Origin: a virus
Lineage: Duplodnaviria > Caudoviricetes
Reading direction: 5' to 3' (one strand)
Virus record (IMG/VR): IMGVR_UViG_3300038673_000220
Location: 1-64,000 of that record
DNA length: 64,000 nt
In this document: piece by piece, positions 2 to 45,452 of the stretch
Layout: every line of letters starts with the position of its first letter
Position numbering within the stretch: the stretch's first letter is position 1
Program-made: the position numbers and the translations under genes
Notes under the pieces: generated by a model
What the model was told of the DNA's origin: nothing
Databases searched by the model: none
The model's input: the letters and a program-made list of their open reading frames with translations, nothing else

Positions 2-487
2 ATCTATTTAACTAAGTCTGATGGATGGTGGAAAGATGAAGTAGCTGAACCATGTCAAGCTATCATGGAAGATCCTGGTGATCGAGCTATGGCTATTAAA
101 TGTGCTAAACGTGATGGTTGGTGGAGAGATCCAAATAAGGATTGTGTAGATGGGTTGAGTAATGATTTATCAAAAATCACCCCTTACAATTGCAATCAAA
201 TTCTTATTGTTAATATACCATCATCTTTAAGAAAGATCTTTTTAAATGACGACGGTATTATTATTTGTAAAGTTATACATTTTAGTATCGAGAACCGGAA
301 GATAACTTTACAACTTAAAGAAGTATATGATTCAGAATTATCAGAATATACTTTGAATTTAAATACCAGTATTGTTTTGTTACCTGACAATACTGAATTT
401 CTTGAAATAAACGATATACGAATTTGTGATTCTAATATAAAATACCTAAGAGGTATAACTGAGAATAAATTTGCTTTTGTAGCTTAA
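2..487 (+). CDS. 5'-truncated repeat protein (GDRAxAIxxAKxxxWW family), paralog of 1253..1816
   Basis: Frame open from base 2 (IYLTKSDGWWKDEVAEPCQAIMEDPGDRAMAIKCAKRDGWW...), so the gene starts before the window; shares its repeat with 1253..1816. Confidence 0.75.
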   Translation: MYLTKSDGWWKDEVAEPCQAIMEDPGDRAMAIKCAKRDGWWRDPNKDCVDGLSNDLSKITPYNCNQILIVNIPSSLRKIFLNDDGIIICKVIHFSIENRKITLQLKEVYDSELSEYTLNLNTSIVLLPDNTEFLEINDIRICDSNIKYLRGITENKFAFVA

Positions 488-905: not shown

Positions 906-1252
906 TGTCATTACTTAGAATTGATACCATTGATGATTTTGAACCATTAGCTTATTGTAATTATATTACGACGAGTGGTTCAAAGATGAGTATTCCAATC
1001 ATAGATAGCCAGATCGAAGGTATGATTTTATTTGAGGAGGCTTATGATTCGAATATACCATTATTAAAAATAGTGCATACAAAGAATATTGAGACTGTCA
1101 TATTGTGCAATCGTTTTGAGAACATAATAACGATTGAGCATGATTTCCATATAAAAACATTTATTTGTTGTATGATTAAGTACCAGGCCAAAGAATCTGG
1201 TATATTGCCTATACCAAAAGATATCAATTCAATAAACTTCGACATAATCTAG
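905..1252 (+). CDS. hypothetical protein
   Basis: TAATG stop/start coupling with the upstream ORF. Confidence 0.65.
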   Translation: MSLLRIDTIDDFEPLAYCNYITTSGSKMSIPIIDSQIEGMILFEEAYDSNIPLLKIVHTKNIETVILCNRFENIITIEHDFHIKTFICCMIKYQAKESGILPIPKDINSINFDII

Positions 1253-1816
1253 GTGAGAGTCATGAGTGATGTCATTAGTGCGAATGATCTTTTAAAAGGA
1301 GTTGTTGAAGGAATAAAAGAAGAAAACATAAACAATTATTGTAATAGTATTAAAAATGCTTCTGGTGATAGAGCTTGGATCATCTATTTAGCAAAAGAAG
1401 CTAAATGGTGGATCGAAGATGATATCACGACATGTGCATCTATATTAAACGCTTCAGGAAATCAGGCTTTAGCTATATGCTACGCTAAATTATCAGGATG
1501 GTGGATCTATTCAGATGAGCAAACTACACAACAAATCACATTAGCTCCTGGTAATAAAGCTTTAGCTATTGCTACAGCTGTTTCAAGTAATATCTGGACA
1601 TTACCTATAGATGATGCCTGTCGAATGATATTGGAATCATGTGGTGATAGAGCTTTAGCTATTTATCGTGCTAAAAATTCAAAATGGTGGAACCAATCTG
1701 ACGATGATGCGTTTAAAGAAATTTTAAAATCATCGGATAATCAGTACGTTATAAATTGTATCAAAAATGACGGTTGGTGGAATTTAAAATCTGATAATCA
1801 TTTCTCTCAAAGGTGA
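1253..1816 (+). CDS. helical repeat protein (~33-aa GDRAxAIxxAKxxxWW repeats)
   Basis: Four to five imperfect repeats: GDRAWIIYLAKEAKWW, GNQALAICYAKLSGWW, GNKALAIATAVSSNIW, GDRALAIYRAKNSKWW. Confidence 0.75.
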   Translation: MRVMSDVISANDLLKGVVEGIKEENINNYCNSIKNASGDRAWIIYLAKEAKWWIEDDITTCASILNASGNQALAICYAKLSGWWIYSDEQTTQQITLAPGNKALAIATAVSSNIWTLPIDDACRMILESCGDRALAIYRAKNSKWWNQSDDDAFKEILKSSDNQYVINCIKNDGWWNLKSDNHFSQR

Positions 1817-1822
1817 TAAACA

Positions 1823-2134
1823 GTGTTAGATGATAATTGTTTTGATGGTAATGAAGAACGTGTTGAAAAGAAAAGACATGAGGATAAATGCTGCAATCTT
1901 GTATTGAAGCATACTAAGATCATGTCAAATATCGTTGGAGGAATATCATTACGTAGAGCTAGAGTTGAACATAATGTTGACATTGAAATGTTAGCTAAAC
2001 AAGCAGACCTTGATTTAGCTAAGATCGAATCAGTTGATGATGTTATCGATATGATCAACTATCTTCGTGATAAAAACTGTATTGATAATCCTGACGAACG
2101 CATTGGTAATCTAATATCAAATGGAGGACTGTGA
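1823..2134 (+). CDS. hypothetical protein, possible HTH
   Basis: LRRARVEHNVDIEMLAKQADL resembles the start of an XRE-type HTH. Confidence 0.5.
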   Translation: MLDDNCFDGNEERVEKKRHEDKCCNLVLKHTKIMSNIVGGISLRRARVEHNVDIEMLAKQADLDLAKIESVDDVIDMINYLRDKNCIDNPDERIGNLISNGGL

Positions 2135-2385
2135 TGAAATATATCAATATCGATGGAATCGGGATGATAACATTTCCAGATACCATTGATCATTCAAAGA
2201 TGTATGATCTTGTTTCAAAACTTAAACCTGGAGCATCTATAATCGGTGCTGGTAAAATCGGTGGTCAAGGTGATGAACTCGTTCCTGATTATCTCTATTG
2301 CTATGGTGAATCTATAACTTTAGGTTATCGATGTGATGAAGAGAAAGATAATTGGGAATTAGAAAGAAACTTAAGATTGTTTTAA
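2131..2385 (+). CDS. hypothetical protein
   Basis: RBS GGAGG; overlaps the upstream stop. Confidence 0.65.
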   Translation: MMKYINIDGIGMITFPDTIDHSKMYDLVSKLKPGASIIGAGKIGGQGDELVPDYLYCYGESITLGYRCDEEKDNWELERNLRLF

Positions 2386-2419
2386 TCATAATACAAATTC
2401 TGTTAAGGATAAGACCACT

Positions 2420-2791
2420 ATGAATACCATCATTGATAAACTGACAGTTAAAGCTCTCCAGGCTATGACCATAGCTGAATTCACTCAATACGCTAAAGAG
2501 GTTATCGAACCGAAGTTTAAAAATAGGAACGAAGGATTCGGATTTCGGTTTCCTTATGCTCTTAATTGTAGAATGGAAGAGAAGATGGCTGATTGTAGCA
2601 AACAACTACGCTATACAGCATTTTTGAATAACAGTGGGAGACTTTGTCATATCATCTCACCTGATGATAGTGACTTTATTTTAAGGATACGTTTCCATAG
2701 ATCGATCAAGTCTTATTCTGAAAAGAAACAACGGATCGCTATATGGATGAAAGCGCATAAATGGATCGATATTGGAGAATGTCCGAAATGA
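2420..2791 (+). CDS. hypothetical protein
   Basis: RBS AAGGA; in operon. Confidence 0.6.
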   Translation: MNTIIDKLTVKALQAMTIAEFTQYAKEVIEPKFKNRNEGFGFRFPYALNCRMEEKMADCSKQLRYTAFLNNSGRLCHIISPDDSDFILRIRFHRSIKSYSEKKQRIAIWMKAHKWIDIGECPK

Positions 2792-3207
2792 TACAACTAT
2801 CCGAATTAAAAAGCACCCTTGAAGATAATTTTCAAGGGTGCTACACCTTCCCAAAGTTGGAGGATGAGGCTAAAAAATCAACAAGCAATATAACTTGTAT
2901 ATGTCCTCTCCATGGGGAGTTTAAAAAGAGATTATCATATCTCACTAATGACAAAATGGGGTGTCCTCATTGCGCTGATCTTCGAAGAGTTATCGCTATG
3001 AAGAGTGATGTTGATAACGCTCTTAAAGAAATGATAGCTTTTTATAAATACGTTATGAATCCTGTTTATACTGACATGCTTATCGTTAGTACGAGTAGGA
3101 ATGCTTTTCAAAATTATCCAAGACTAGCGAATAATTCTTATCAACTACTGAAGTTTGTTTATTTTAGATACAGACTGATTAGTGGTCATGATGCTTTTTC
3201 ATTGTAA
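2761..3207 (+). CDS. zinc-ribbon protein (DUF723-like, homing-endonuclease-associated)
   Basis: ICPLHGEF...GCPHCA motif; true start probably a downstream ATG. Confidence 0.6.
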   Translation: MDRYWRMSEMIQLSELKSTLEDNFQGCYTFPKLEDEAKKSTSNITCICPLHGEFKKRLSYLTNDKMGCPHCADLRRVIAMKSDVDNALKEMIAFYKYVMNPVYTDMLIVSTSRNAFQNYPRLANNSYQLLKFVYFRYRLISGHDAFSL

Positions 3208-3229
3208 TTAAGTGTAAAAATATACCGAA

Positions 3230-4267
3230 ATGAATATTTTACAAAGTAAACTTAACCTTATTTTAGATGGTGGTTTGGGATCATCGGGTAAAGGCCTCTT
3301 AGCTGAGTATCTTGGATTGACTAACCATGTTGATATAGCGATAACATCAGCAGCAAGTAATGCTGGTCATTCGTTCATCTATCATGGGAAGAAGAATATT
3401 TCCAAATACATCCCAGTATCAGGTATAATAAACAAACGATCAACCATCTATCTTTGTTCTGGAGCTATCATCAATCCAAATATTTTCATAAAGGAGGTCG
3501 AGCATTTCGATATTGCACCTGATAGAATTATCATCCATCCGAATTGTGCTGTTATAGATGATGATGATATTCTTAATGAAAAAGATAAGGATAGCGCTAC
3601 AACGAAGTTGTCATCAACTCAATCTGGTGTAGGGAGAGCTTTATCTCGGAAGATCTTAAGAGAATCTGAATTAGCTGGATCTAATCCTATACTTAAACGA
3701 TTCACTCAAGATTTCGATCTTCAGTATTTATTGGATCAAGGTTGTACAGCTCTTATGGAAATCCCACAAGGTATGGACCTTAGCCTAAATGGTCCTTTTT
3801 ATCCTTATTGTACATCTCGTGATATTTCTGTAAGCTCAGCTTTGAATGATGCTCAAGTTCATCCATTCTATCTAGGAAAGGTATGTTGTGTTATAAGGAC
3901 TTTCCCAATACGAGTTGGGAATATCAAAGATGAGAATGGAAATGAGATCGGGTACAGTGGACCTTTCTATGATGATGCTGAGGAATTGTCATGGAAGGAT
4001 ATTGGTGTTGATCCAGAAATAACAACCGTAACAGGTAGAGAGAGACGAGTCTTTGAATTTTCAATGAAGCAATATCGAAAGATGATTAAGTCATTCCGTC
4101 CTGATTATGTTTTGTTGAATTTTGGTAATTATCTTGAATTAGATCGATTAGATGATCTCGTTAAACGATTACCTAAAGTAACTCACATCGGACTTGGTCC
4201 AGAAGTGAGTGATATAATTACGATTAAAGAATTCAAAAATGCTGTTAAATACTCAAGAATAAAATAA
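3230..4267 (+). CDS. purZ: PurZ-type adenylosuccinate synthetase homolog (N6-succino-2-amino-2'-deoxyadenylate synthase)
   Basis: GSSGKG where PurA has GDEGKG (Asp to Ser); SNAGH, STQSG, YPYCTSRD, RTFPIRVGN, TTVTGRERRVFEFS; LNFGNY where PurA has TKLD; short 345-aa length as in PurZ. Confidence 0.8.
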   Translation: MNILQSKLNLILDGGLGSSGKGLLAEYLGLTNHVDIAITSAASNAGHSFIYHGKKNISKYIPVSGIINKRSTIYLCSGAIINPNIFIKEVEHFDIAPDRIIIHPNCAVIDDDDILNEKDKDSATTKLSSTQSGVGRALSRKILRESELAGSNPILKRFTQDFDLQYLLDQGCTALMEIPQGMDLSLNGPFYPYCTSRDISVSSALNDAQVHPFYLGKVCCVIRTFPIRVGNIKDENGNEIGYSGPFYDDAEELSWKDIGVDPEITTVTGRERRVFEFSMKQYRKMIKSFRPDYVLLNFGNYLELDRLDDLVKRLPKVTHIGLGPEVSDIITIKEFKNAVKYSRIK

Positions 4268-4286
4268 TACTTAAATAGGAATAATC

Positions 4287-4481
4287 ATGGAAAATGTGAA
4301 TGAGATAAGAGCATTTTATCCAGATGGTAGCAATCAATTGGGTCTTGATTACGATGGAGATGAGTGGAATGTTCAAGATCAACAACATCATCGTATGATA
4401 CCTAAAGATATTCGAACTAAACGAAAAAATAAACGTAAACTTACAAAACAATCTCGTCGGAAAAATAGGAGGATGAATTAA
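4287..4481 (+). CDS. small basic hypothetical protein
   Basis: RBS AGGA; K/R-rich C terminus. Confidence 0.6.
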   Translation: MENVNEIRAFYPDGSNQLGLDYDGDEWNVQDQQHHRMIPKDIRTKRKNKRKLTKQSRRKNRRMN

Positions 4482-4822
4482 TGTTGCATAATGATAATAA
4501 TATTCGTGACAATACAGTTAGATATAGTCGTGGGATTATTGCGGGTTGTTTTAATTATGATGATATTTATTCCAGTCTTACGATATTGTCTTCGTTAAAT
4601 GGTATTTTCTCAATAAATAGTGAAACTGGGAAATTAGCACTCACTGTTCGGAAAGGTGATACGGTCGTTTGTATTGATTCTAATCAATCATACGTTAATA
4701 TCATTGGTAAGAGTGATTCCGAAGATGATTGGGTAGAAATTGGGTCTCTGTATACTGATGAAGAATTGGAATTGATTAGTAAATACAATCCAAATATTAT
4801 ATCAGTAGATGGATCTCAATGA
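4481..4822 (+). CDS. hypothetical protein
   Basis: TAATG coupling; RBS GGAGG. Confidence 0.6.
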   Translation: MLHNDNNIRDNTVRYSRGIIAGCFNYDDIYSSLTILSSLNGIFSINSETGKLALTVRKGDTVVCIDSNQSYVNIIGKSDSEDDWVEIGSLYTDEELELISKYNPNIISVDGSQ

Positions 4823-4945
4823 TCTGCAATCATTAAACGTCAATTCAAAATTCGACAAATAGCCAGAAAACAACGACGAAAACAATTCAATCGGTCGGAT
4901 TTGATTATGAGGTTAAAGATATTATGATTAATCATTGTCATTTTA

Positions 4946-5341
4946 TTGGAGATTAAATTTAAGGGGGTTGACCGAATGCATTTTACTATAAGTAGTTTAT
5001 CTGGAAATTATCCTATGATAATAGGGTTACTATCCGTTCTGCTTGCATTAATTATTATAAATGTTATTGTTGTTTCAATAATACTATCTAATAAGTCAAA
5101 AAGAAACAATCGAATATCAGATCTGGATAAGGAATGGTTAATAAAATTACTCATCGAATCGCAATTAGAAGAAATAGATGAAGAAAGTATCGAATTTCTA
5201 ATATCTCAGATGTCCAATGAAACATTGTATGTGATGACTAAACTTTTAGGTGAGAATTCTGATAAAGATTTTCATCAGAATGATCTAATACTTTTTATAT
5301 GCACCACGATCGCGAATGAATCACAATTTCGGTTACAATAA
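4946..5341 (+). CDS. membrane protein
   Basis: One hydrophobic segment; likely start at ATG 4976 after AAGGGG. Confidence 0.55.
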   Translation: MEIKFKGVDRMHFTISSLSGNYPMIIGLLSVLLALIIINVIVVSIILSNKSKRNNRISDLDKEWLIKLLIESQLEEIDEESIEFLISQMSNETLYVMTKLLGENSDKDFHQNDLILFICTTIANESQFRLQ

Positions 5342-5344
5342 TAA

Positions 5345-5386
5345 ATATAAAGTTAGCTAAGCATCTTTGCTTAGCTAACTTTATAT
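5345..5386 (+). terminator. hairpin terminator
   Basis: ATATAAAGTTAGCTAAGCA-TCTT-TGCTTAGCTAACTTTATAT. Confidence 0.8.
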
Positions 5387-5423
5387 ATTTTTAAACGATA
5401 TTAATGATAATTAATTTTTCTAT

Positions 5424-6026
5424 ATGAGGAATATCATCGTGACAAACGCAAAAATTGTAACAAATGGTATTGAACAGTATGAGTCATCTAAGAAAAATAA
5501 TCGAGGATACTCTGAACTTAATAATAATTATTATCGTGATAATCTCAAAAACATCTATGACAATTTGTATAAGAATATAGCTTCCAAAAAGCATTTAACG
5601 ATTATAGGTATATTCAATTATGCTGATACTGAAGAATTTAAACAACTTGGTATAGGTGGACGTAATCATGTACTTATATTCTGCAACATATGTAAAAAAT
5701 TCAGTATAATAACCATCGCATCGTTTCTAAGATCGAAACATAAATGCAAATATTGCTTTTACAATGCGTTGAAAAAGCGTCGACACAATAAACCAGAAAA
5801 AGCTTCATACACTTTCGAAGATTTAGTTAGAAAAGGTAAAGAAGTTCATGGTGATATCTACACTTATATTGGTAAGGATAGACATCATAATGGTGCGTCT
5901 CGTATTATTTATAAGTGTAATATATGCGGTCATATCAATAATCAATTGGCTCATAATCATTTTAAAGGAAGTGGGTGTTATAATTGTAACATCCTTAAGA
6001 GATCTTTAAATACTAGGAGAACTTAA
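5424..6026 (+). CDS. zinc-ribbon repeat protein (DUF723-like), no nuclease domain evident
   Basis: CNICKK, CKYC, VHGDIYTY, CNICGH, HFKGSGCYNC. Confidence 0.6.
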   Translation: MRNIIVTNAKIVTNGIEQYESSKKNNRGYSELNNNYYRDNLKNIYDNLYKNIASKKHLTIIGIFNYADTEEFKQLGIGGRNHVLIFCNICKKFSIITIASFLRSKHKCKYCFYNALKKRRHNKPEKASYTFEDLVRKGKEVHGDIYTYIGKDRHHNGASRIIYKCNICGHINNQLAHNHFKGSGCYNCNILKRSLNTRRT

Positions 6027-6487
6027 TGATGAGTTTGAAATTACTTCTACCATTATTATTACAGATATTAGGTTCTATATTCAAAAAGAAGCATCCTCAA
6101 AATCCACAATCTCTACCTGTTATACAAAAAGTTGAATCTAAGAAAATACCTAATGAACAATTCTTTTTTGAACTTGGCGCTAAGTATTTTGATAATTGGA
6201 TCTTGGGTGAACCCATTATTATAGATCCAAAGATAGAAGATCCTCAATCCATTTATAAATGGATAGATGGCTTTAATTCAAAACTATCATCTGGTAATCT
6301 TGATAATGTCAGAAAATTCAAAGAGAGAGTAGATCTCTTATTTGAATTAGCAACTGTTATTCGTAACGTTGAGGGTATCGCCCCTACTACTGTAGGTGCA
6401 AGCCTTGGACAGCTACTAGTTCGCTTACGAACTATCGATGGGGAAAGGTTTGATAGGGAAGTTTTGAAGATCGTCAAAAAGAAATAA
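6026..6487 (+). CDS. hypothetical protein
   Basis: RBS GGAG; hydrophobic N terminus. Confidence 0.6.
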   Translation: MMSLKLLLPLLLQILGSIFKKKHPQNPQSLPVIQKVESKKIPNEQFFFELGAKYFDNWILGEPIIIDPKIEDPQSIYKWIDGFNSKLSSGNLDNVRKFKERVDLLFELATVIRNVEGIAPTTVGASLGQLLVRLRTIDGERFDREVLKIVKKK

Positions 6488-6500
6488 AAAGGAGAGAATC

Positions 6501-7148
6501 ATGTTTGACTTTATTTTTAACAAGCATCGTATGTCATTTTTCAGGTCGAGTTTGTACATACCGATCATTATGGCTTTTGTATTGATTAATTATTTAAAAC
6601 TTACAGAATTTGAGACGATGTCAACATGCGTAATAGTCGCGTGTATCTCAGTTGTGTCGATAATTTTTAATAGACATTATTTCTGTAAGCTTTTTATTAG
6701 TGAAATATTAATTATTGATATGATAGCATCATTCTTTATAATCTTCTTTTTAGCATCTAAAGTTCATAGCGCTGAAATAGTTTATCCTGATATAACTGTT
6801 AAAATAAATCGAGTGTATGATGGTGATACGATATTCGTTGATGTACCTAATATACCAGATGCTTTTGGTAAAGAACTCGGAATACGTATACGAGGTATCG
6901 ATACTCCCGAAATAAAAGGAACTTGTGATAAAGAGAAACAATTAGCTTTAACAGCTAAGGATCTTGTTGTTAAGCTCCTAGAAAAAGAAAACTTCATAGT
7001 TTTAACGAATATAGGACGTGATAGATATTTTCGATTGGATGCTGATATCATTTTGAAGGACGGGTCAAGCGTTGCTGATATTTTATTGAAAGCTGGTTTG
7101 GCTTATCCTTATGACGGACAAACTTCCAAACAATCATGGTGCGATTAA
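6501..7148 (+). CDS. membrane-anchored thermonuclease (SNase family)
   Basis: VYDGDTI, IRIRGIDTPE, DRYFR, LLKAGLA motifs after three hydrophobic segments. Confidence 0.85.
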   Translation: MFDFIFNKHRMSFFRSSLYIPIIMAFVLINYLKLTEFETMSTCVIVACISVVSIIFNRHYFCKLFISEILIIDMIASFFIIFFLASKVHSAEIVYPDITVKINRVYDGDTIFVDVPNIPDAFGKELGIRIRGIDTPEIKGTCDKEKQLALTAKDLVVKLLEKENFIVLTNIGRDRYFRLDADIILKDGSSVADILLKAGLAYPYDGQTSKQSWCD

Positions 7149-7456
7149 GTATGCGATTTATATCATATTTTGCTGATTTATTATTCATCGTAATGGGAGC
7201 AACATTCCTTTCGAAGGTCATTATGCATAAACAATTCAAAAAAGATGTTGATGTTGATGAAACTCTTCAAGAAGTCGTGTTACGATTGATTTATCACGAG
7301 GATATGAAGAGTATACGAATGATCATAAAATGCATGTCTAGAGATGGTGTCATCCAATTTAGAGCTCATCTTCAAGATCATGTAGATAAATTCAAAGAAG
7401 GATCAAAGATAATGTACTATCATCAAATCATTGAATACATCGATGGTGTATTATGA
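7136..7456 (+). CDS. hypothetical membrane protein
   Basis: N-terminal hydrophobic segment; in operon. Confidence 0.5.
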   Translation: MVRLSMRFISYFADLLFIVMGATFLSKVIMHKQFKKDVDVDETLQEVVLRLIYHEDMKSIRMIIKCMSRDGVIQFRAHLQDHVDKFKEGSKIMYYHQIIEYIDGVL

Positions 7457-7926
7457 GACGGTATTTAGCCTATTTAAAATATATCGTACTTCATAAATAC
7501 TATGTTTTCAAGATCGGTAGAATGATGAAGATCCCCATCGTACAACTTATTTTACACGACTTGAGTAAATTCTACTTATTCGAATTTAAGAATTACGCTT
7601 ATGCGTATTATGATGAACAAGGTAAATCAAATTACGCTTATCATGACGGGCTCGATAGAGCTTGGAATCTTCATCAAAAAAGAAACAAACATCATTGGCA
7701 GTATTGGATATGTTTGAATGATTCTGGCAAAACTACATTCTTAGATATACCCGAGGTTTATTTAAGAGAGATGGTTGCTGATATGCTAGCTATGGATGAA
7801 TGTGACGTAGGTGATAATTCTTTGACTTATTTTAAAAAGATAAAAGATTCTATCATAATGAAATCTTGTGATAAAAACTATATTGAAAAATTGATTATAA
7901 CTTATGGAGGATATGGAGTTGACTGA
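7453..7926 (+). CDS. HD-superfamily protein (DUF5662-like)
   Basis: HKYYV...LHDLSKF...HQKRNKHHWQYW...EMVAD. Confidence 0.75.
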   Translation: MRRYLAYLKYIVLHKYYVFKIGRMMKIPIVQLILHDLSKFYLFEFKNYAYAYYDEQGKSNYAYHDGLDRAWNLHQKRNKHHWQYWICLNDSGKTTFLDIPEVYLREMVADMLAMDECDVGDNSLTYFKKIKDSIIMKSCDKNYIEKLIITYGGYGVD

Positions 7927-8314
7927 TCAAATGACGATTATACCTGTTAAAGATCTGAAGTATCTTATCAAACCTGTATTTGAAAATATCATTCGAGACA
8001 TCATTATAACGAATGTTGAAGATGACGACCTCAAGATGATTAGAGAATCTTTCTGTAAAGAAATAGCATCTATAATCGGTGATCGTCAAATGTTTTTCAT
8101 AGGCGATGTTCGTTACATATTCTTATCAATGCTAGAAGATGAGGATACTTTTGTTAAACATGGTGATATCGTCATTGATCATATAATCCAATGGTGCCAA
8201 AGTTCGAAAACTCATTGGGATTTTGAAAGATTACGTACACCTATAAATGTCATCAAAGCTCTTTTATTAAGTAAACGATGTAAAAGAGAGCAACTGATTT
8301 TGGAGAATACTTAA
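7904..8314 (+). CDS. hypothetical protein
   Basis: RBS GGAGG before the second Met. Confidence 0.6.
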   Translation: MEDMELTDQMTIIPVKDLKYLIKPVFENIIRDIIITNVEDDDLKMIRESFCKEIASIIGDRQMFFIGDVRYIFLSMLEDEDTFVKHGDIVIDHIIQWCQSSKTHWDFERLRTPINVIKALLLSKRCKREQLILENT

Positions 8315-8315
8315 A

Positions 8316-9083
8316 ATGGTAATCATCAATAGTGAGTTTTTACAAAGCGTCTTACCGGAGGTTTCTGGATCAAGGAGTGATAGTCGTTCTGACATCCTAA
8401 GAGAGATAGAACCTCATTTAGATGCTATACTTAAAGAATACGAAATCGATACACCTTTACGTATAGCTCATTTCTTAGCTCAATTGGCTCATGAGAGTGA
8501 TAGTTTTTGTACTACTCAAGAGTATGCATCTGGGACAGCTTATGAAGGTCGTAAAGATCTTGAGAACACTGATCCTGGTGATGGTCGAAAGTACAAAGGT
8601 CGAGGTTTGATCCAACTAACTGGAAAGGCTAATTATCGACAGATGGGTAAGATCTTAGATCTTCCATTAGAATTACATCCATGTATAGCTGCTGAACCAG
8701 TTATTTCTCTAATGATCGCTTGTGAGTATTGGAAAAGTCGTGATATCAATAAAGCTGCTGATACTGACAATATTGAAAAAGTTACAAAGCTTGTTAATGG
8801 TGGTTTGAATGGTATCGATGATCGTAAGAAGTATTATGCGAAATTTAAGAGTGGTTTAAATCAAACTGACAAAATCGAAGATGTGACAGTTGTTTTAAAG
8901 AAAGGGTCACAAGGAGAACATGTGATGAAGCTTCAACAAATTCTCAAAGATAAAGGGTACTCTATCAAACCTGATGGTGATTTTGGAAAGAATACTGATA
9001 GCGTAGTTAAAATGTTTCAGAAAACCAATGGTTTGAATCCAGATGGTGTTGTTGGCAAAAACACTTGGAAGATCTTAGCTTAA
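8316..9083 (+). CDS. endolysin: GH19 lysozyme/chitinase domain plus C-terminal peptidoglycan-binding domain
   Basis: AHFLAQLAHES, YKGRGLIQLTGKANY, VNGGLNG; LKKGSQGEHVMKLQ...DGDFG...FQKTNGL...DGVVG. Confidence 0.9.
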   Translation: MVIINSEFLQSVLPEVSGSRSDSRSDILREIEPHLDAILKEYEIDTPLRIAHFLAQLAHESDSFCTTQEYASGTAYEGRKDLENTDPGDGRKYKGRGLIQLTGKANYRQMGKILDLPLELHPCIAAEPVISLMIACEYWKSRDINKAADTDNIEKVTKLVNGGLNGIDDRKKYYAKFKSGLNQTDKIEDVTVVLKKGSQGEHVMKLQQILKDKGYSIKPDGDFGKNTDSVVKMFQKTNGLNPDGVVGKNTWKILA

Positions 9084-9087
9084 CAAG

Positions 9088-9123
9088 ATAGAGCGTGTCA
9101 GCTTAAATGCTGACACGCTCTAT
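9088..9123 (+). terminator. intrinsic terminator
   Basis: 15-bp perfect stem plus T tract after the endolysin. Confidence 0.85.
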
Positions 9124-20353: not shown

Positions 20354-20665
20354 ATGGAGGATGAATTTATGCATTATTTAGATAAAGCTGATTTATACGA
20401 GACGATGACGTTTAATAAACTAAAACAATTAGGTTCACAACTCGTCGTTGCCAATGTAACACGATCGAAATATCAACACGTTCTCATCAAACTCATAAAT
20501 GAATTGAGAGAGAATTATGGTAAATTAGAGGAAGCTCTTTTTATACATGACATGATTCAAGAGGTTGATAGTAAGACTATTAATGAGGTTGTTAAACAAA
20601 CAGATAATCTAGCGATAAAGCTTTACGAAGCTGATCAACTCTTTGATGATATGTTTAGCCCCTAA
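20354..20665 (+). CDS. hypothetical protein
   Basis: GGAGG before the second Met. Confidence 0.55.
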   Translation: MEDEFMHYLDKADLYETMTFNKLKQLGSQLVVANVTRSKYQHVLIKLINELRENYGKLEEALFIHDMIQEVDSKTINEVVKQTDNLAIKLYEADQLFDDMFSP

Positions 20666-23226: not shown

Positions 23227-23966
23227 TGGAAAATTTACAACCATTTGAAGTAGTACAGTTACGAGATGAATTGATGAATGGTAATGATTTGTCTTTAGAA
23301 GGTATCTTTTCGAATCTAGATATCCCCATCGATAATTTGTCAAACATCACCGATTTCAAAACTGGTGTGAGCAAGTTCTCTATGTCAAAGCTTCTTAATG
23401 ATGAAGGTTATGAATATAAAAAGCATATTCCATCGTTCATTGCTGTAGATTCTGATAAAGAACAAACGATCATCATTGATGATTTTCTCATGTTCAACAT
23501 CATGTTTGGAGATTATGAGGTTATCAACAAGTTCTTAAAACAACTCACCGATATTTCTGAAGATAACGTAGTGAATATTATTATAAGTATTTCACTTTGT
23601 CAAGTTAATTTTCAAGCTATCGATGCAGCAACTTTTATTCGAAACTCAATAAGTAATATTAAAGCTAAAAAGATCATGAGTTTTGGATCTGAAACATCAT
23701 TAATTGAACTCCTTATAGGAACTTGTTGTGATGACATCTATATATCGGATTTTGCATCTATCATTATAAATCACTCTGTTAATTTCAATAAGATATCTGA
23801 ATTTTTATCACCCGTATTTCAACAATTCATTGAATTTACATGCGATTTCTGGATGAAACGTGGATTATTCACAGAAGACGAATGTAAACAAATCGTCGAT
23901 AAGAATAATTCTTTTACTGTTAGTATCTTTAGTGACGATATCAAAAACCGAATGCTTCAAAAATAA
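23226..23966 (+). CDS. divergent ClpP-fold paralog, probably inactive
   Basis: LIGTCCDDIYISDFASIIINH aligns by eye with LILTFGDKIAIEDLSITMFH upstream; AAS and PGG motifs missing. Confidence 0.5.
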   Translation: MENLQPFEVVQLRDELMNGNDLSLEGIFSNLDIPIDNLSNITDFKTGVSKFSMSKLLNDEGYEYKKHIPSFIAVDSDKEQTIIIDDFLMFNIMFGDYEVINKFLKQLTDISEDNVVNIIISISLCQVNFQAIDAATFIRNSISNIKAKKIMSFGSETSLIELLIGTCCDDIYISDFASIIINHSVNFNKISEFLSPVFQQFIEFTCDFWMKRGLFTEDECKQIVDKNNSFTVSIFSDDIKNRMLQK

Positions 23967-23968
23967 AT

Positions 23969-24006
23969 AAAAGATCATCTCAGCTTAGATGCTGAGATGA
24001 TCTTTT
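23969..24006. terminator. terminator between convergent genes
   Basis: AAAAGATCATCTCAGC-loop-GCTGAGATGATCTTTT. Confidence 0.85.
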
Positions 24007-31049: not shown

Positions 31050-32399
31050 ATGAGTGATAATAAAATAATCAACAAGCAGTTCATACATTCATGTTCTATT
31101 CGAACAAAAACTGGAAATGCTGTAATCGTTAAAGAAAAAAACCAATACGAAGATGGAACCATCAAACCGAACCTAGTTTTATATGAGAATCCAAAGAGAT
31201 CCTTTTATATAACTCAACCAAAATACCGGACATACAATTACAAACCTGAATACGAATTAGCTTCAAGGCTTGACAAGATAACGGTTAGTGATCATGAGCT
31301 CTACTCGAAAGTAGCTGAGCTTTTTAATCTTGGTCCTGGGTATCATTCAGCTGATAAGCTTTTCAAATCACCGTATATCTTTGGAGCTGATATAAATGTT
31401 GAAGCTCTTATCAAGATGCGATATATGAATCAATACCCTGATTCATCTTTACTCCCAACTGTTGGATTCCTTGACATTGAGACAAGTATTGATACGAATC
31501 AGATCATCATGATATCTTATCTTCATGATACGACGGTTCATACCGCTATCCTTCGTTCATTCTTTTTTGAAGAAAAAGGTAAAGATCGAGTACCTATCAA
31601 TCTAGATGATCTTGTACCTTTCATCCAAAAGAACCTCGAAGGAAGAACTAAAGATATAAACTTCACTTATGACATTAAGATATTCGACATCGAAATAAAG
31701 CTCATAGCTTGGATCATGCAATGTATCCATATGTCAGAAACTGATTTTATATCTATCTGGAATATGAACTTCGATATCCCAAAGATCTTAGCTACTATTG
31801 TAAAATCAGGTTATCGTCCAGAGGATCTTTTCCATAATCCAAAACTTCCAACGAGATGCAAATACCTTAAGTATCACGAAGATAAGCAGAAAAAAGATCA
31901 CTTCACATTGAAATGGCATTGGCTTTATAGCTCATGTGGAACTCAATGCGTTGATGCAATGGGTCTTTATTCTCAATGTCGAAGAACTCAAGGTTATCTT
32001 GACAAGTATAGTCTTGATAACGTTCTTGATAAAGAGATTCAAATGGGGAAACTCCCACTTATCAGTGGATCTCACGTTATCATGCAACGTCATCATTTTA
32101 AAGAATACATCGTTTACAACATATTCGATGTCATTGGATTGAAGCTTCTTGAAGACAGGATCAATGATTTTGTATCTATGCATGTGCTTATAGGTCCAAC
32201 TCCAGTAAGCAAGTTTGCAACTCAGACCACTCGATCGACAAATGATATGTATTACGACCTTATCAACAAAGGTATGATCCTCTCATCTAAATCAGGTGAT
32301 GATCCTTTTATCAAATTCGATAAGTACTTACCTCGAGTAGGTGGTGCAGTTCTATCTGCGAGTCGAGTACGAGGAGTAGGGATTCCCTTAACCTTATGA
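31050..32399 (+). CDS. family B DNA polymerase, N-terminal 3'-5' exonuclease part (phiKZ gp082-like)
   Basis: ExoI FLDIET, ExoII WNMNFD, YSLDNV, ExoIII YNIFD, then GGAVL, which normally precedes motif A. Confidence 0.88.
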   Translation: MSDNKIINKQFIHSCSIRTKTGNAVIVKEKNQYEDGTIKPNLVLYENPKRSFYITQPKYRTYNYKPEYELASRLDKITVSDHELYSKVAELFNLGPGYHSADKLFKSPYIFGADINVEALIKMRYMNQYPDSSLLPTVGFLDIETSIDTNQIIMISYLHDTTVHTAILRSFFFEEKGKDRVPINLDDLVPFIQKNLEGRTKDINFTYDIKIFDIEIKLIAWIMQCIHMSETDFISIWNMNFDIPKILATIVKSGYRPEDLFHNPKLPTRCKYLKYHEDKQKKDHFTLKWHWLYSSCGTQCVDAMGLYSQCRRTQGYLDKYSLDNVLDKEIQMGKLPLISGSHVIMQRHHFKEYIVYNIFDVIGLKLLEDRINDFVSMHVLIGPTPVSKFATQTTRSTNDMYYDLINKGMILSSKSGDDPFIKFDKYLPRVGGAVLSASRVRGVGIPLTL

Positions 32400-32938
32400 A
32401 CGAAGATTTTTTTCCTATTTCAAAAGATACCGATGTCAAATGCTATCGTTGTAAAAAAGAAAATACTCAATCTGAAGAGCAGTTTTACCTTACAGAGTGG
32501 GAACTTTCTACAGGAGCATCAACTGACGGTATTTATTATTGTCATTCTTGTATAATTAATAGTGGAGAACATACAATGATCACATTGCTTGAACCTAAAA
32601 ATCCAAAGTCAGATAAAAAAGATAAAAACGTACCAGTAACTGTATTCACCTTAACTTTCGCTACAATCGATCTGAATTATTCGAACGTATCGATATCGAA
32701 GAAGGTACCTAATAGCAGGCTTGAATTGAACGAATCTGTATTAAATGATCATTTTGATGATATCATCAGGGATTATAATGATCCAAGTATTTCTACCATT
32801 AAGGGAGTATTTAATGGAAAATACGTTAACGTCGAAAAGAAATACATATCAGGATTCTTCGTTGATGTGCTTCATAAAGTTGAAGGTGAAGCTTGTAATG
32901 GTTTTGATAATGATGGTCTACCTCCTTGGAATCCTTAA
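32396..32938 (+). CDS. zinc-finger hypothetical protein inside the polymerase gap
   Basis: CYRC...CHSC; ATGA overlap with the polymerase stop. Confidence 0.6.
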   Translation: MNEDFFPISKDTDVKCYRCKKENTQSEEQFYLTEWELSTGASTDGIYYCHSCIINSGEHTMITLLEPKNPKSDKKDKNVPVTVFTLTFATIDLNYSNVSISKKVPNSRLELNESVLNDHFDDIIRDYNDPSISTIKGVFNGKYVNVEKKYISGFFVDVLHKVEGEACNGFDNDGLPPWNP

Positions 32939-32959
32939 TCCGATTAAGAGGAAACAATA

Positions 32960-34319: not shown

Positions 34320-34613
34320 TTGCAATTAAGCTTCGAAACGATGTTCTCGATACTAGTAGCAGACCTTGATTACTCAAGTCTTTATCCAAGTATTATGAGA
34401 GCGATAAATCAGAGTCGGATGACTCTAACATTTGTACCTATCTTGATTGATGGAATGACTCGAGATGAACTTGATAGGTACTTTAGTAATCTTGTAAATG
34501 TTAGAGAAAACGCTGAAACTCTTTGTTCTGTTTATCACGGATTTCCAGATTACCAAGAAATGTACCAATTAGTTAGGGACTATCAGTATAGAGACCAACC
34601 CTCAATTAATTGA
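34320..34613 (+). CDS. family B DNA polymerase, motif A fragment
   Basis: VADLDYSSLYPSIMRAIN; own GGAGG RBS (34308-34312) and TTG start. Confidence 0.85.
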   Translation: MQLSFETMFSILVADLDYSSLYPSIMRAINQSRMTLTFVPILIDGMTRDELDRYFSNLVNVRENAETLCSVYHGFPDYQEMYQLVRDYQYRDQPSIN

Positions 34614-34629
34614 AGGATAATAAATTATC

Positions 34630-35292
34630 ATGAAATTCATTATGTTTTGTGGAGATGATCGAGTCGGTAAATCGACAATGTCAAGATCATTACAATCATT
34701 GATCCATAGAGGTTTTCGTGTTAAAACATCCATCGTATCTTTTGCAGATGGTGTAAGAGATGAATTAGTTAATCTCTATGGTATTCCAAATGAGATTATA
34801 TATAACAAAACCATCGATAAGAAGAAGTTGAATCTTTGCCTCGGTGATTATACATATGAAGGAATCATACCACAGTTGTGGATGAAATATGGCTTAATTG
34901 GTAAGCTTTCTGACTATTCTGATATAGAGATATCTTTACGGGATCTTTTCGTAACTCATGGAACGAAGATCAGACGTCAAGAAGATGATCTTTATTGGAA
35001 TAAGATCGTTAAAGAAAAAGTAGCATCATTCGATGATATTGAAATATGTATCATTGATGATCCAAGATCACCATCGGATTTTGAATTCGACACGTTGATT
35101 TTTCATCTAAACAACAATCAACCAGCTCATTATAATCTTGAACAACAGAGATTCCATGATTGGTTAAAAAATAACGAACATCGCATAGATTTGAGTGTAG
35201 ATCTACCTGTACATTTACTTGAATTCGATGCAGATAAAATAAATAAACAAATCATCTTACCGTATATTCGTGATAAGATGATTATTAAATAA
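34630..35292 (+). CDS. deoxynucleoside monophosphate kinase-like P-loop protein
   Basis: GDDRVGKST, SFADGVR, GTKIRR, IIDDPR (T4 gp1-like layout). Confidence 0.75.
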   Translation: MKFIMFCGDDRVGKSTMSRSLQSLIHRGFRVKTSIVSFADGVRDELVNLYGIPNEIIYNKTIDKKKLNLCLGDYTYEGIIPQLWMKYGLIGKLSDYSDIEISLRDLFVTHGTKIRRQEDDLYWNKIVKEKVASFDDIEICIIDDPRSPSDFEFDTLIFHLNNNQPAHYNLEQQRFHDWLKNNEHRIDLSVDLPVHLLEFDADKINKQIILPYIRDKMIIK

Positions 35293-35300
35293 GGTGGTTT

Positions 35301-35858
35301 GTGATGCAAAATCAGATATCTTGGCTCTCTTTTGATCTTGGGAGTAATCTCGGTTGGAACAAAAGCGTTTGTACGTTCCGACCTGAGTTAAAAATAAACG
35401 TTGTTGATCATGGTACTATCGATTTGAATCATTTGGCTTCCGAATGGTCTAAGCGTAATTACAGTGAAGTACTCACTCCACGACGTATCAGGATCAATAT
35501 CTTCATGGAGCAAATCAAGAAACTCGTTGATAACTCAAATGCTGACGCTTTTGTTACGGAAGATGTTTTCTGTAATCCTCATCGAGTCGATGCGTTCAGA
35601 GCATTAGTTATCTACATGGATCGATTAGAAAGCTACATCAATAATGAAAAGAACAAACGTTTATACACTATCCCTGCAACTCAGATCAAAAAGCATATCA
35701 GTAATTATGGACATGCTGATAAGTCGTTAGTCATCAAATCTGTTTTGGACAATAACCAAATAACTATGAAAAGGCCTCAAGATGCAACGACTCATGAGTT
35801 TGACAGTGTTGCTGTTGTTTGGGGTTTCATCAGAGAATACCTGATGGTTCAAGTTTGA
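35301..35858 (+). CDS. ruvC: RuvC-like Holliday junction resolvase
   Basis: SFDLG, FVTED, IKKHI...GHADK, HEFDSVAV. Confidence 0.85.
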   Translation: MMQNQISWLSFDLGSNLGWNKSVCTFRPELKINVVDHGTIDLNHLASEWSKRNYSEVLTPRRIRINIFMEQIKKLVDNSNADAFVTEDVFCNPHRVDAFRALVIYMDRLESYINNEKNKRLYTIPATQIKKHISNYGHADKSLVIKSVLDNNQITMKRPQDATTHEFDSVAVVWGFIREYLMVQV

Positions 35859-35859
35859 G

Positions 35860-35870
35860 ATATATATCAT
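35860..35870 (+). promoter_or_regulatory. ATATATATCAT promoter motif
   Basis: Recurring motif upstream of the thyX RBS. Confidence 0.7.
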
Positions 35871-35905
35871 CCTGTAATATCAAATCTACTCATGAGGAGA
35901 AAATA

Positions 35906-37300
35906 ATGTTTCAAGTATCAACTCAGGAAGACCGGACTCCTTCCAGATTAACGCGATATGCTGCTTCTAAATGTTACAATCGTAACAGTGAAGAGTGTTT
36001 GAAGAATTGTGATAAAATAGATATTCCAAATGCTTTAGGTAAAACTGGACATCATACAACGCTTCAACATTCGAGTAACTATATCTCATTCGATATTGAA
36101 AATATACCAGTGAGTCTAGCTACATTCGGTCTCCATCTTACGCATCCATTTTACAATTCGAGTCAACGAAGTGGTCGTTATTGTTTGGATATGTTTGATG
36201 GGGACAACCGTATTCAGCTTGTTGAATACATTCAGCAGTTTAAGAAAAAGTATATCGGTGATACACCTTACGATTTAAAGATCCTTAACTGGTTCTTACG
36301 AGGATTTGATTTCTTTCATGATAATATCGATAAGGTCCAAGCTTTAGCTAAGGACGCTCTCTATAAAGAGCGTCCTCATTATAAACTCGATATCGAACGT
36401 CAATCTTTAAGGATAGCTCAAGACCAACTACGTGTGTTTATCTCAACGATCGTTCCAACCGGAATGGTTTACACGATCAATCATATCGCTCTATTTGCAT
36501 TATATGCTTCAGCTTGGAATGATCCATTAAAAGATCTTACACAGCAGATGATACATCAGATCGAAGATCTTGATATCATACGAACATTTGATTCATTGAA
36601 TCTAAAACAAACTAATGATTATCATCCTCATTTCGAATGTTATGGTGATGAGAATAAGGTCTTTGGTATTTTGAATAAACCAGAAGTTAATGTTCATCTT
36701 ACTAAGATCATTAATGATGATAACTTTGATAAATTTGAATCGCTCTTTAAATCGCACGCTGTTCTTGATACGCTCTATTTTGATCCAAACTGTTATCCAG
36801 AGGATATCGATGATCTTTATTGTACTGAGTTTAAGGCGACTGTCAAAGTACCAGTTGTGACTTTTGGTCAGGATCAACGTCATCGTATGATCTCAAGAAC
36901 GTTAGCGAAGGTTACTGGTGATTTTTACATATCTCCATTACTTGAGAAAGTTCCAGGTGTGATCGATTTTGCAGCAAGATTCGCTAATGAATACAATGAG
37001 TTAGTGAATAATGTTGGACCACGTAATATGATCCATTTTATTCCATATGGTTCAGTTGTTGAATACGCTAAACGGTATGATTATAGAGCGTATGCTCATT
37101 GTATTCATAAACGTATGTGCTTCAATGCTGAAGCAACTATTTGGAAGATGGAGAATGAAACGATCAGACAGCTTTTTGCACTGATGAATCGTGATCGAAA
37201 AGAATCTGTTATAGGACCACCATGTTTAAATGGGAAGTGTCCTGAAGGAAAAAGAAGTTGTGGTAAAGAAAGAAGTTGTTTAACACGTAATCTCATTTAA
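35906..37300 (+). CDS. thyX: flavin-dependent thymidylate synthase, long two-domain form
   Basis: GHHTTLQH, SQRSGRY, QDQRHR; start moved to the ATG after GAGGAG. Confidence 0.8.
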   Translation: MFQVSTQEDRTPSRLTRYAASKCYNRNSEECLKNCDKIDIPNALGKTGHHTTLQHSSNYISFDIENIPVSLATFGLHLTHPFYNSSQRSGRYCLDMFDGDNRIQLVEYIQQFKKKYIGDTPYDLKILNWFLRGFDFFHDNIDKVQALAKDALYKERPHYKLDIERQSLRIAQDQLRVFISTIVPTGMVYTINHIALFALYASAWNDPLKDLTQQMIHQIEDLDIIRTFDSLNLKQTNDYHPHFECYGDENKVFGILNKPEVNVHLTKIINDDNFDKFESLFKSHAVLDTLYFDPNCYPEDIDDLYCTEFKATVKVPVVTFGQDQRHRMISRTLAKVTGDFYISPLLEKVPGVIDFAARFANEYNELVNNVGPRNMIHFIPYGSVVEYAKRYDYRAYAHCIHKRMCFNAEATIWKMENETIRQLFALMNRDRKESVIGPPCLNGKCPEGKRSCGKERSCLTRNLI

Positions 37301-43244: not shown

Positions 43245-45452
43245 ATGACCGCTCTTAATAACTTTCAAGAGTTTATGGCTGGCCTTGAGTCCATGAATAT
43301 CGATGTTGATGGCGATAGCGTATCCATCTCTGATCAGCAAACCATCGACTCTGTTTTTGGTAATGTTAAGAATTTCATCACCTCTAACAACCTGGTTCAA
43401 CCTGATTACTTCCATTCTCTTGAATCCATCGAGACTCCGACCAGATCTCTGAACAAAGCTGTTGATGTAACCGGCGTTGGTATTGAACCATTGATCACCC
43501 TTTGTCAGAATTGTAACGTTCCGTCCAAGCATCTGAAAGCTGCTGTTGAGTCTGTAGCTCTGTGTATTCACAACTACTGTCAGAATTACAGTGCTAGCCA
43601 GCATTTTGCTAAAGGTTCTGCACCGTCTGGTAGCCATGGTGATTACGAGGTTCGTGGATTCGATGGTGTATTCTCTGACCGTATGAATGCCATGGTCAAA
43701 GGAGAGGCTGCAGCTTCTCTTGAGTCTTTTGGTGCCGATGTATCCAACGTTATCTCCGATGCTAAAGTAGCTGTCACTGTAACGATCCTTCGTTATCATC
43801 GTGGCGTTATCCATCGCCTGATTCCGAACATCCCGACTGATTCCGTAATGGTTTCCTACAAGGTTGACCATATGGAAGTATACGACTTGGCTAAATCTCG
43901 TAGTAATGATGCTGCTGAGCGTTATGATGGCCAACATCGTGTACCGTTTGTTGATCTGTATGGCGATCCCTCCCCAGCCAACACTCAGCTGAAACCGATC
44001 GTTCTTCGTACTTCCAACGATGCAACCGCACCGAATTCCAAGCTGCTTGCTGAGAATGTTGGTAAGATCAATACTTCGATCAACATGTTCGATTACTCGA
44101 TCGACGCCGGTGTAATCGGTTATACTCATATCGATTTCACTGATATCGTTGCTGACAACGTCCGTATCAAAGCGCTGTACTTCAACGTCACCGATGGTAC
44201 TTCCACTGAGCTTTTCCGTTTTGGTGTAAGTGAGTATGCTGGCGCTCGTATGTTGATGAATGCCAACAATCTTGATTCTGGCGATCGTACTTGTAACTTC
44301 AAGGATACCCTCGTCCTTGCCAACGATTCCAAAACTTCCAGCGATGTAGCATCCACCTTGCTTGCTGGTCTTACCGAAGATGCAGTTGTCAAATTGGTAA
44401 CCAATGCATCCGGTTCTGTTAATCTGAAAACTTCTGAGATCATCGTTCTTGGATCCACTGCTCCTGCAATCGGTACCGTTTCTGGTAATGCCGTCATTGC
44501 TGCTGATCAGGCGATCTTTGATGCTCTTACTTTCACCATCGTTGGTTTTGAGCCTGCTGCTGAGTTTTCCGAAGAGAACGTACGTAAGACTACTCGTGCA
44601 ATGCGAATCATGACTAAACAGGTTGGTTATGAGATCCCTGGTTCCCAGAACTTCGTTGTTCAGTACTCCCTTACTCAGACTCGTCCGGAAACTGTTATCG
44701 ATGGTCTTGCTAAGCTTATGGCTATTGGTAATGATGATCGTGGTATCAGACTTATCATGGATACCATGGGCAACGTCAAAGATCGTATCGTTGCTGAGTC
44801 CAAACTTAGTGATGCTAACTATGTAAATAAAGTTGGTCAGGCATTCGTCGCTGGCCAGCGTGTTAAACCGTCGATCTTCTTCCACACCATCACTCTTGAT
44901 GCTGATCTGAAGAATATACGTTCTGCTGATAAATGGGGTGATATCCGTGCATTGACTGAGGAGAATCTGCTGAACATCTTCTCTCGTCTGTATCGTGAAT
45001 CCTACTACTCTCAGGAACTGGGTGATGGTGAGAAACCGGTATTCAACTGCTTGACCTCCATCCCGATCAAGTCTTCTCTGCTTTCTGTACCGCATTATCA
45101 CAATCACCTTGCTGATTCTGCAGCTGACAAAGTAGCTGATGGCGTAATCGAGTTCCGTCGTACTCTTCCGGATGGTACTGTACTGAACGTAATCACCACT
45201 ACGTTCAATTACATGGATGACAAGATGCTGATCGTACCTGTACGTCCTTCTCGTCCTCAGTCCGTCCTGAACTTTGCTCAGAACCGTGAGCGTGGTCAGT
45301 TCCTTGCTCAAGCTACTCCGACTATCAACGATTCGATCTTCAACTCATTAATCGGCAACAGTAGGGAATTTCCCGTGGTCTTGTGCCCCGTGGGTGCACT
45401 TGTTCAGATCAGTGGCCTTCATGCTATCTTTGATACCTTTGGTGCTCTGTAA
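43245..45452 (+). CDS. major capsid protein precursor (phiKZ gp120-like)
   Basis: 735 aa; strong RBS; biased codon use; propeptide GLE/SLE sites (AASLESF); gene order. Confidence 0.85.
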   Translation: MTALNNFQEFMAGLESMNIDVDGDSVSISDQQTIDSVFGNVKNFITSNNLVQPDYFHSLESIETPTRSLNKAVDVTGVGIEPLITLCQNCNVPSKHLKAAVESVALCIHNYCQNYSASQHFAKGSAPSGSHGDYEVRGFDGVFSDRMNAMVKGEAAASLESFGADVSNVISDAKVAVTVTILRYHRGVIHRLIPNIPTDSVMVSYKVDHMEVYDLAKSRSNDAAERYDGQHRVPFVDLYGDPSPANTQLKPIVLRTSNDATAPNSKLLAENVGKINTSINMFDYSIDAGVIGYTHIDFTDIVADNVRIKALYFNVTDGTSTELFRFGVSEYAGARMLMNANNLDSGDRTCNFKDTLVLANDSKTSSDVASTLLAGLTEDAVVKLVTNASGSVNLKTSEIIVLGSTAPAIGTVSGNAVIAADQAIFDALTFTIVGFEPAAEFSEENVRKTTRAMRIMTKQVGYEIPGSQNFVVQYSLTQTRPETVIDGLAKLMAIGNDDRGIRLIMDTMGNVKDRIVAESKLSDANYVNKVGQAFVAGQRVKPSIFFHTITLDADLKNIRSADKWGDIRALTEENLLNIFSRLYRESYYSQELGDGEKPVFNCLTSIPIKSSLLSVPHYHNHLADSAADKVADGVIEFRRTLPDGTVLNVITTTFNYMDDKMLIVPVRPSRPQSVLNFAQNRERGQFLAQATPTINDSIFNSLIGNSREFPVVLCPVGALVQISGLHAIFDTFGAL

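Follow-up and report, generated by a model that had tools for sequence, protein, structure and literature searches.

PurZ is a marker of genomes in which adenine is replaced by 2-aminoadenine (Z), and the characterised cases pair the enzyme with the removal of dATP. The purZ genes of phiVC8 and S-2L, carried by phages of 39–45 kb, lie beside datZ and mazZ, mostly together with a PolA-type dpoZ, and the replacement of A by Z is complete. According to a 2026 survey of NCBI viruses, PurZ phages mostly have DatZ plus MazZ-2 or DUF550, and PurZ0 phages all have DutZ. The residues tied to the use of dGMP and ATP by PurZ have been described (PMC8342488; 10.1101/2025.10.22.683976). Here we describe a purZ homologue from the window, that is, the whole stretch of 64,000 nucleotides that was analysed (Table 1). 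Judged by its sequence and its place in phylogenetic trees the protein is a PurZ, whereas its locus falls outside the definition of a Z-cluster.

Table 1. Positions of the features discussed (window numbering unless a record or another locus is named).
Feature	Position	Strand	Remark
purZ	3230..4267	+	345 aa; ATP-type 2-amino-deoxyadenylosuccinate synthetase homologue
9-bp direct repeat GTAAACTTA, left copy	3246..3254	+	left end of the purZ deletion in X2
9-bp repeat GTAAACTTA, right copy	4435..4443	+	inside ORF 4287-4481; right end of the deletion
64-aa ORF, basic C-terminus	4287..4481	+	no family match; mostly lost with purZ in the X2 strain
DUF5662 protein, H...HD...H pattern	7453..7926	+	weak candidate nucleotide hydrolase; retained in the purZ-deleted strain
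phiKZ-type PolB exonuclease-containing subunit, 5' part	31050..32399	+	
Short ORF with polymerase motif A (DYSSLYPS)	34320..34613	+	sequence read directly
Deoxynucleoside monophosphate kinase	34630..35292	+	phrog_139, E 8e-15; candidate for dZMP to dZDP
ThyX-domain thymidylate synthase	35819..37300	+	
phiKZ-type major head protein	43245..45452	+	marks phage type
Chimallin-fold gene, 499 aa	record 75945-77444 (= L175:12945-14444)	+	beyond the window
Second PolB subunit	record 142162-144423	-	beyond the window
NDT-like protein	L337:12066-12617; L321:14740-15129; L347:12424-13326		candidate DmtZ analogue

The purZ reading frame and its active site

The purZ frame is uninterrupted from its ATG to its stop codon. 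The product matches adenylosuccinate synthetase (Pfam PF00709, E 1e-21), and its best PDB sequence matches are the PurZ proteins of phiVC8 (E 1e-41) and S-2L (4e-37), followed by weaker matches to Pyrococcus PurA (4e-30) and PurZ0 (9e-24). The top NCBIfam model is that of PurZ (NF038379), at a score of 185.8 bits that lies below the curated cut-off of 300 bits, probably owing to divergence from the model seeds, and that exceeds the scores of all PurA models (archaeal PurA PRK04293: 163.8 bits, cut-off 368). The AlphaFold model (pLDDT 95.5) superimposes on S-2L PurZ with a Z of 41.6 and an rmsd of 2.0 over 328 residues, and on phiVC8 PurZ with a Z of 41.5 and an rmsd of 1.7; with Z values of 39.5 for Pyrococcus PurA and 39.1 for PurZ0, the modelled fold by itself separates the three types of enzyme only slightly. 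An earlier note on this DNA had proposed an adenylosuccinate-synthetase fold, which the PF00709 match and the structural matches to PurZ enzymes bear out, and the motifs it gave (GSSGKG, TTVTGRERR and LNFGNY) are all present.

On alignment with the reference enzymes, S18 corresponds to D13 of Escherichia coli PurA and S14 of phiVC8 PurZ, such that the catalytic Asp of PurA is replaced by Ser, as had been read from GSSGKG. Residues N297/F298/G299/N300 correspond to T330/K331/L332/D333 of E. coli and N294/F295/C296/N297 of phiVC8, Y301 to phiVC8 Y298 and E. coli V334, and T265 to phiVC8 T262. The replacement of T330, K331 and D333 by N297, F298 and N300 agrees with the ATP-type pocket that the earlier note had recognised in LNFGNY for TKLD, and together with Y301 these residues reproduce the adenine-selecting donor pocket of phiVC8 (N294/F295/N297/Y298). 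Position 300 is Asp in 21 of 81 datZ-linked PurZs, so the site is not absolute; a GTP-type Asp at the position of E. coli D333 occurs in all 14 PurZ0-like cellular rows and in both PurZ0 phages. Contacts to phosphate and aspartate and across the dimer are retained (K21, N44, H47, T130, R144, Q180, T195, R228 and R272), and S18, T265, F298, N300 and Y301 are as in dGMP-using PurZ, with no clade-wide change that hints at a new substrate. An odd residue is G15, which adjoins the dGMP pocket and is Gln in 80/81 datZ-linked PurZs.

In two quick IQ-TREE maximum-likelihood trees, composed without short archaeal PurA, the protein is nested inside phage PurZ (SH-aLRT 100 in one tree and 97 in the other), away from PurZ0 phages, Ser-type cellular homologues and PurA; in the comparison of PurA, PurZ0 and PurZ that the earlier note had suggested, the ORF thus groups with PurZ and not with PurA. 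R270 aligns with R303 of E. coli, K267 of phiVC8 and L278 of S-2L. Among the 81 PurZs with a datZ neighbour, this site is Arg in 65, Lys in 11 (as in phiVC8) and Leu in five (as in S-2L), which makes Arg an ordinary residue for PurZ and, in the sequences compared, the commonest one in full Z-clusters. Because Arg is so common and the protein lies deep inside PurZ, the previous description of the enzyme as intermediate between PurA and PurZ fails. The same residue could be taken to indicate that the protein is an auxiliary PurA, converting IMP to AMP with GTP, as R303 of E. coli PurA contacts the 2'-OH of IMP (PMC8342488) and AT-rich phages need adenylate, but such a role is highly improbable for a protein that has neither the catalytic Asp13 nor a TKLD-type GTP pocket (Ser and N/F/N, respectively), branches apart from PurA, and carries an Arg typical of datZ-linked PurZ. 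By sequence and modelled fold, ORF 3230-4267 is an intact ATP-type PurZ, for which catalysis is predicted.

The PurZ clade and a natural deletion of the gene

The ORF falls in a clade of 28 rows (SH-aLRT 94) that looks derived from Z-cluster enzymes, since most of its sisters are PurZs of small phages that have datZ and dpoZ. The clade is large, with at least 120 homologues listed at 51–70% identity, and spans phage contigs of 80–510 kb, at least five of which have chimallin-like genes; members are also present in large phages without a chimallin match, three of them with PolA. The matches listed include neither a cultured clade member nor a cultured phiKZ-like record, and the best cultured-phage homologue is <38% identical. 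Viral contigs gave no homologue when searched with the single sequence, and an alignment-based scan succeeded. The median GC content of clade loci is 34% vs 53% for datZ-linked loci. The 43 columns that are invariant across 120 relatives show that the clade is under selection, and all 43 are kept in the present protein.

Related genes were also seen elsewhere. PurZ0-like Ser-type genes, mostly retaining Asp333, are found in many bacterial and some archaeal genomes (L103-L172), and a normal PurA is also present in four of five such genomes that were checked. ATP-type PurZ without a nearby datZ is encoded on contigs that were assigned to MAGs of Micavibrio, Bdellovibrionales and other Proteobacteria (L094, L096-L100), some of these contigs being 0.6–1 Mb long. 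The cultured Flavobacterium phage MaF61 (168 kb) has a divergent Ser-type N/F/N homologue and its own adenylosuccinate lyase (L009:11917-13260 and 23601-24956), with no datZ nearby and with strong avoidance of GGCC, CCGG and CGCG.

Public contigs were compared with window positions 1200-9100 in a search at 85% likeness. In a wastewater strain (run X2) the flanks are ~94% identical and covered at a depth of 22–23 on both sides, with no cover over purZ, and the X2 contig joins 3245 to 4435 across a gap of 1189 bp. The gap shows the pattern of a deletion between the 9-bp repeats (Table 1), in which what remains of purZ, its first codons, runs into the end of the small gene that follows; the junction is provisional, with only 32 bases on its short side. 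Run X3, from the same study, has the same hole at low depth and gives a weak hint only, and a landfill run covers pieces of purZ. In X2 and X3 a foreign sequence was also seen just upstream of the purZ start (window 3211-3214), its ends unmatched in this record. As a ~94% identical strain has deleted it, purZ is, on the comparison of these sequences, dispensable, and an obligatory Z genome is unlikely because a phage that destroys its own dATP could not lose purZ. The earlier note had allowed that substitution by dZ might be partial, a hedge that the analysis supports; it had not foreseen the loss of purZ in a close relative.

The deletion, together with the departure of G15, L16 and S19 from the clade consensus Q, F and T, could also mean that the gene is a remnant under relaxed selection that is heading for loss in this lineage. 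This reading is improbable in view of the intact frame, the retention of 43/43 invariant residues, a GC3 of 0.25 that is within the range of the genome, the purZ pieces in the landfill run and the presence of purZ in relatives at 54–58% identity.

Neighbouring genes and candidate helpers

No datZ was detected within 10 kb of purZ (controls positive) and no mazZ near it, in agreement with the earlier note, which had seen neither next to the gene. Across the clade, datZ is present in 0/22 loci with at least 3 kb downstream, vs 67/79 other PurZ loci; the clade-wide absence is probably one loss, so that the 0/22 does not represent 22 independent observations. DatZ was not detected in any of nine large records searched whole, among them G009 (93% complete), G011 (91%) and G012 (100%), whereas 3/3 small controls were positive. 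In the complete G012 (287 kb) there is also no match for MazZ, DUF550, DUF5664, HD, MazG, Pfam NDT, dUTPase of either type or PolA, and G009 has one DUF5664 match. A full-genome search for DatZ and MazZ/DUF550 had been suggested for the present phage; the search covered ~175 kb of a genome estimated at 276 kb and gave no datZ, mazZ, DUF550, DUF5664, DutZ or DmtZ. No PolA is found in this incomplete record or in G009, G012 and G013, the replicase being the split PolB. A DatZ-profile match at 20354-20665 (E 0.011, unfiltered) was rejected, as controls score 1e-46 or better. The existence of a helper-less PurZ clade means that the marker and the full Z system can come apart.

The gene sits among small accessory genes, and no neighbour is conserved across the 28 loci, ribonucleotide reductase and dUTPases recurring in a minority. 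A dimeric dUTPase-like gene (at 9.7 kb) and a class II ribonucleotide reductase are located ~6–10 kb upstream of purZ; the reductase (L001:1322-4498, on the 182-kb contig upstream of the window) is preceded by the dUTPase-like gene and has an apparent intein at its catalytic NPC motif. Together, ThyX and the dUTPase speak for T rather than U in the DNA. DUF5662 was rejected as a general partner of purZ: it is over the cut-off in 1/13 records (in G012 only below it), is widespread in viruses, and is kept in the purZ-deleted strain. Three contigs have it no more than 10 kb from purZ (the present one; L286:9403-9897 and 17724-18188; L287:18983-19441), and in one of them it immediately precedes purZ. 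A small putative nucleoside deoxyribosyltransferase (NDT)-like protein is encoded in three genomes with purZ and chimallin, namely G009, where its gene directly follows purZ, G012 and G013, and is absent from 10/10 tested purZ-negative phiKZ-like records. It occurs in only 10/50,697 phage records and has no match among Pfam, PHROG and PDB sequences; one homologue is annotated as a deoxyribosyltransferase, and the putative enzyme recalls DmtZ (PMC12884076).

These genes would be relevant if the phage had a full Z genome, in which dATP is removed by an unrecognised enzyme of the dimeric dUTPase-like, DUF5662 or NDT-like kind and PolB uses what remains. Such an arrangement would be consistent with the convergent origin of Z-phage helpers, which include repurposed dUTPases and NDT enzymes (PMC12884076), with S-2L, where full Z is attained with a non-selective polymerase (PMC8342488), with three related phiKZ-like contigs that have a dUTPase_2 gene no further than 10 kb from purZ, with the distribution of the NDT-like protein, and with a helper search that covered about two-thirds of the genome. 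It is nevertheless quite unlikely, given that G012 is complete and without either dUTPase type, that no copy of the NDT-like protein turned up in 175 kb of this phage, and that an ordinary dUTPase is expected where ThyX is present. The close strain without purZ, which keeps DUF5662 and the genes flanking the deletion, argues in the same direction, as purZ should be essential if dATP is destroyed.

The palindrome content of Z-cluster loci was also considered. In 37 pooled datZ-linked loci the observed/expected ratio of GC-only 6-bp palindromes is 0.60 (0.09 in the low-GC ones), and that of A/T-only palindromes is 0.95, which makes avoidance of GC palindromes a possible sequence signature of Z-DNA. 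The GC-only ratio is 0.97–0.98 in G009, G012 and G013, and the 0 found vs 3.9 expected in this record are too few to judge. Restriction-site counts were set aside as evidence, because a phage nucleus would remove the pressure anyway.

The phage and the possible roles of its PurZ

The record is 149 kb long with 35% GC (completeness estimate 54%; genome estimate ~276 kb) and the same phage is represented by a 182,610-bp contig that extends it upstream; near-identical DNA has been sampled from a bioreactor, wastewater and landfill. It codes for subunits of virion and non-virion RNA polymerases and for a family B polymerase that is split, and its head, terminase and helicase genes are of phiKZ type. 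This confirms the phiKZ-like jumbo phage and the split polymerase of the earlier note, and both PolB subunits can be placed (Table 1). One PolB subunit gene is split between its exonuclease part and the motif A ORF by an endonuclease-like ORF (32960-34207), and the interruption (31050-34613) is possibly a self-splicing intron. No Rfam match was obtained in the window, the PolB interruption included, and no tRNA in the parts scanned. Other features observed are paralogous proteins that consist of ~28-residue repeats carrying GNRA and GWW motifs (window 65-487 and 1253-1816; record 65089-65892; L001:6293-7258), of which the copy tested had no family match; two 397-aa TnpB/Cas12f-like ORFs (27475-28668 and 45989-47182) that have an identical start sequence and no TnpA seen beside them; a GH19 endolysin with a peptidoglycan-binding domain (window 8316-9083); and a repetitive protein of 2679 aa (window 55508-63547).

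A chimallin search, likewise suggested earlier, led by fold to a 499-aa protein whose gene is directly upstream of a gp55-like RNA polymerase subunit, as is gp54 in phiKZ. Sequence and single-template profile comparisons of this protein with phiKZ gp54 gave no match, and the chimallin fold emerged only from an alignment-based model. Against the chimallins of Goslar, 201phi2-1 and phiPA3 the model has a Foldseek E of 9e-17 and a TM of 0.64, with a Z of 25.2 and an rmsd of 3.8 over 414 aligned residues, the next unrelated structure reaching a Z of 8.3. This short, highly divergent chimallin matches no cultured phage by sequence, and its 34 homologues are environmental. As a chimallin-fold gene occupies the slot of phiKZ gp54, the phage is predicted to form a nucleus. 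Four others combine purZ with a chimallin-like gene, namely a 281,914-bp contig, G009, G012 and G013, and a 132,210-bp contig is probably the sixth case; purZ is absent from 11 other phiKZ-like records, three of them complete. PurZ in chimallin phages was not reported in the literature as far as it was searched, most subscription papers lying outside the search. The clade-wide absence of datZ, the count of Arg at the R303 site and the natural deletion of purZ are new.

In our view the best explanation, to which we assign a probability of roughly one half, is that an accessory, intact PurZ yields dZTP that mixes with dATP and gives partial, condition-dependent Z-DNA. As judged from its family, the enzyme would use (d)ATP to convert dGMP and aspartate to dSMP, host PurB would convert dSMP to dZMP, and phosphorylation by the dNMP kinase of the phage or by kinases of the host would provide dZTP. 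Neither a known dATP-removing enzyme nor a Z-selective polymerase is found, so that dZTP would compete with dATP, and a non-discriminating PolB of phiKZ type would make mixed A/Z DNA. Most polymerases do not discriminate Z from A, and in E. coli the substitution obtained with incomplete Z-clusters is below that with the full triad (PMC8342488). A PurZ without MazZ may be short of dGMP, so that the share of Z could be trivial. The weakest step is the benefit, which we conjecture to be a second route from the guanine pool to an A-equivalent for a genome of 65% A+T, and which would help if dATP runs short or host defence depletes it. Blocking of restriction would matter less, as the chimallin shell would already exclude nucleases.

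The main rival, possible although we hold it to be unlikely, is a counter-defence at the level of the pool, in which the enzyme consumes or converts a nucleotide that is sensed or made by host defence and little Z is placed in DNA. It might return dIMP towards dAMP, use dATP as phosphate donor, or form a product that inhibits a defence system. The PurZ of phiVC8 reportedly accepts dIMP, and phiKZ-like phages, with their chimallin shell, have less need of modified DNA. A patchy, dispensable gene among accessory genes would suit this role. The PurZ of S-2L takes dATP as donor (PMC8342488), and, according to two reports, base-modified nucleotide signalling and dNTP-depleting defences exist (10.1101/2024.12.20.629578, 10.64898/2026.01.15.699771). 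Against these points, the clade has no residue change that would shift the substrate, and any dZTP formed would enter DNA via non-selective polymerases.

If the preferred reading of partial Z is true, the phage would have a natural mixed A/Z genome copied by PolB, otherwise reached only by engineering in the literature examined; if its DNA holds no Z, a second function falls to PurZ, probably one in nucleotide-based conflict. The natural occurrence of purZ-positive and purZ-deleted strains of one phage makes the question testable. A more far-reaching proposal, which we regard as doubtful, is that nucleus-forming jumbo phages copy substantially or fully 2-aminoadenine DNA with PolB and transcribe it with their own RNA polymerases, the helpers being unrelated to DatZ/MazZ (NDT-like in one sub-lineage, dimeric dUTPase-like in another). 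This would be a third Z-DNA architecture, placed atop physical shielding and switchable by gene loss.

Comparison with known systems places the enzyme and its phage in different company. With the short archaeal PurA of Pyrococcus horikoshii (PDB 5K7X) the protein shares its length, fold and aspartate-loop Arg, whereas the archaeal enzyme has the catalytic Asp and uses IMP/GTP, in place of the Ser and PurZ-type donor pocket found here. PurZ0 has Ser at the Asp13 site and the same fold, but retains Asp at the position of E. coli D333 (GTP type) where N300 is found here, is 25–26% identical and forms a separate branch. The PurZ enzymes of phiVC8 and S-2L have in common with it the fold, the Ser at the catalytic-Asp site, the Thr loop, the F/N adenine pocket and the short form without bacterial PurA insertions, at 32–36% identity. 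In contrast to their Z-cluster genes, the present purZ stands by itself; its phage, of ~276 kb, has a PolB and chimallin, and a relative does without the gene. With the Chimalliviridae (phiKZ, 201phi2-1, Goslar and phiPA3) the phage shares the chimallin fold upstream of a gp55-like subunit, two multisubunit RNA polymerases, split PolB, and phiKZ-type head and terminase genes, the core genome of the family being found for representative genes only, not for the full set of 68–72 genes. It differs from them in a chimallin that is only 12–13% identical and has 499 aa vs 626.
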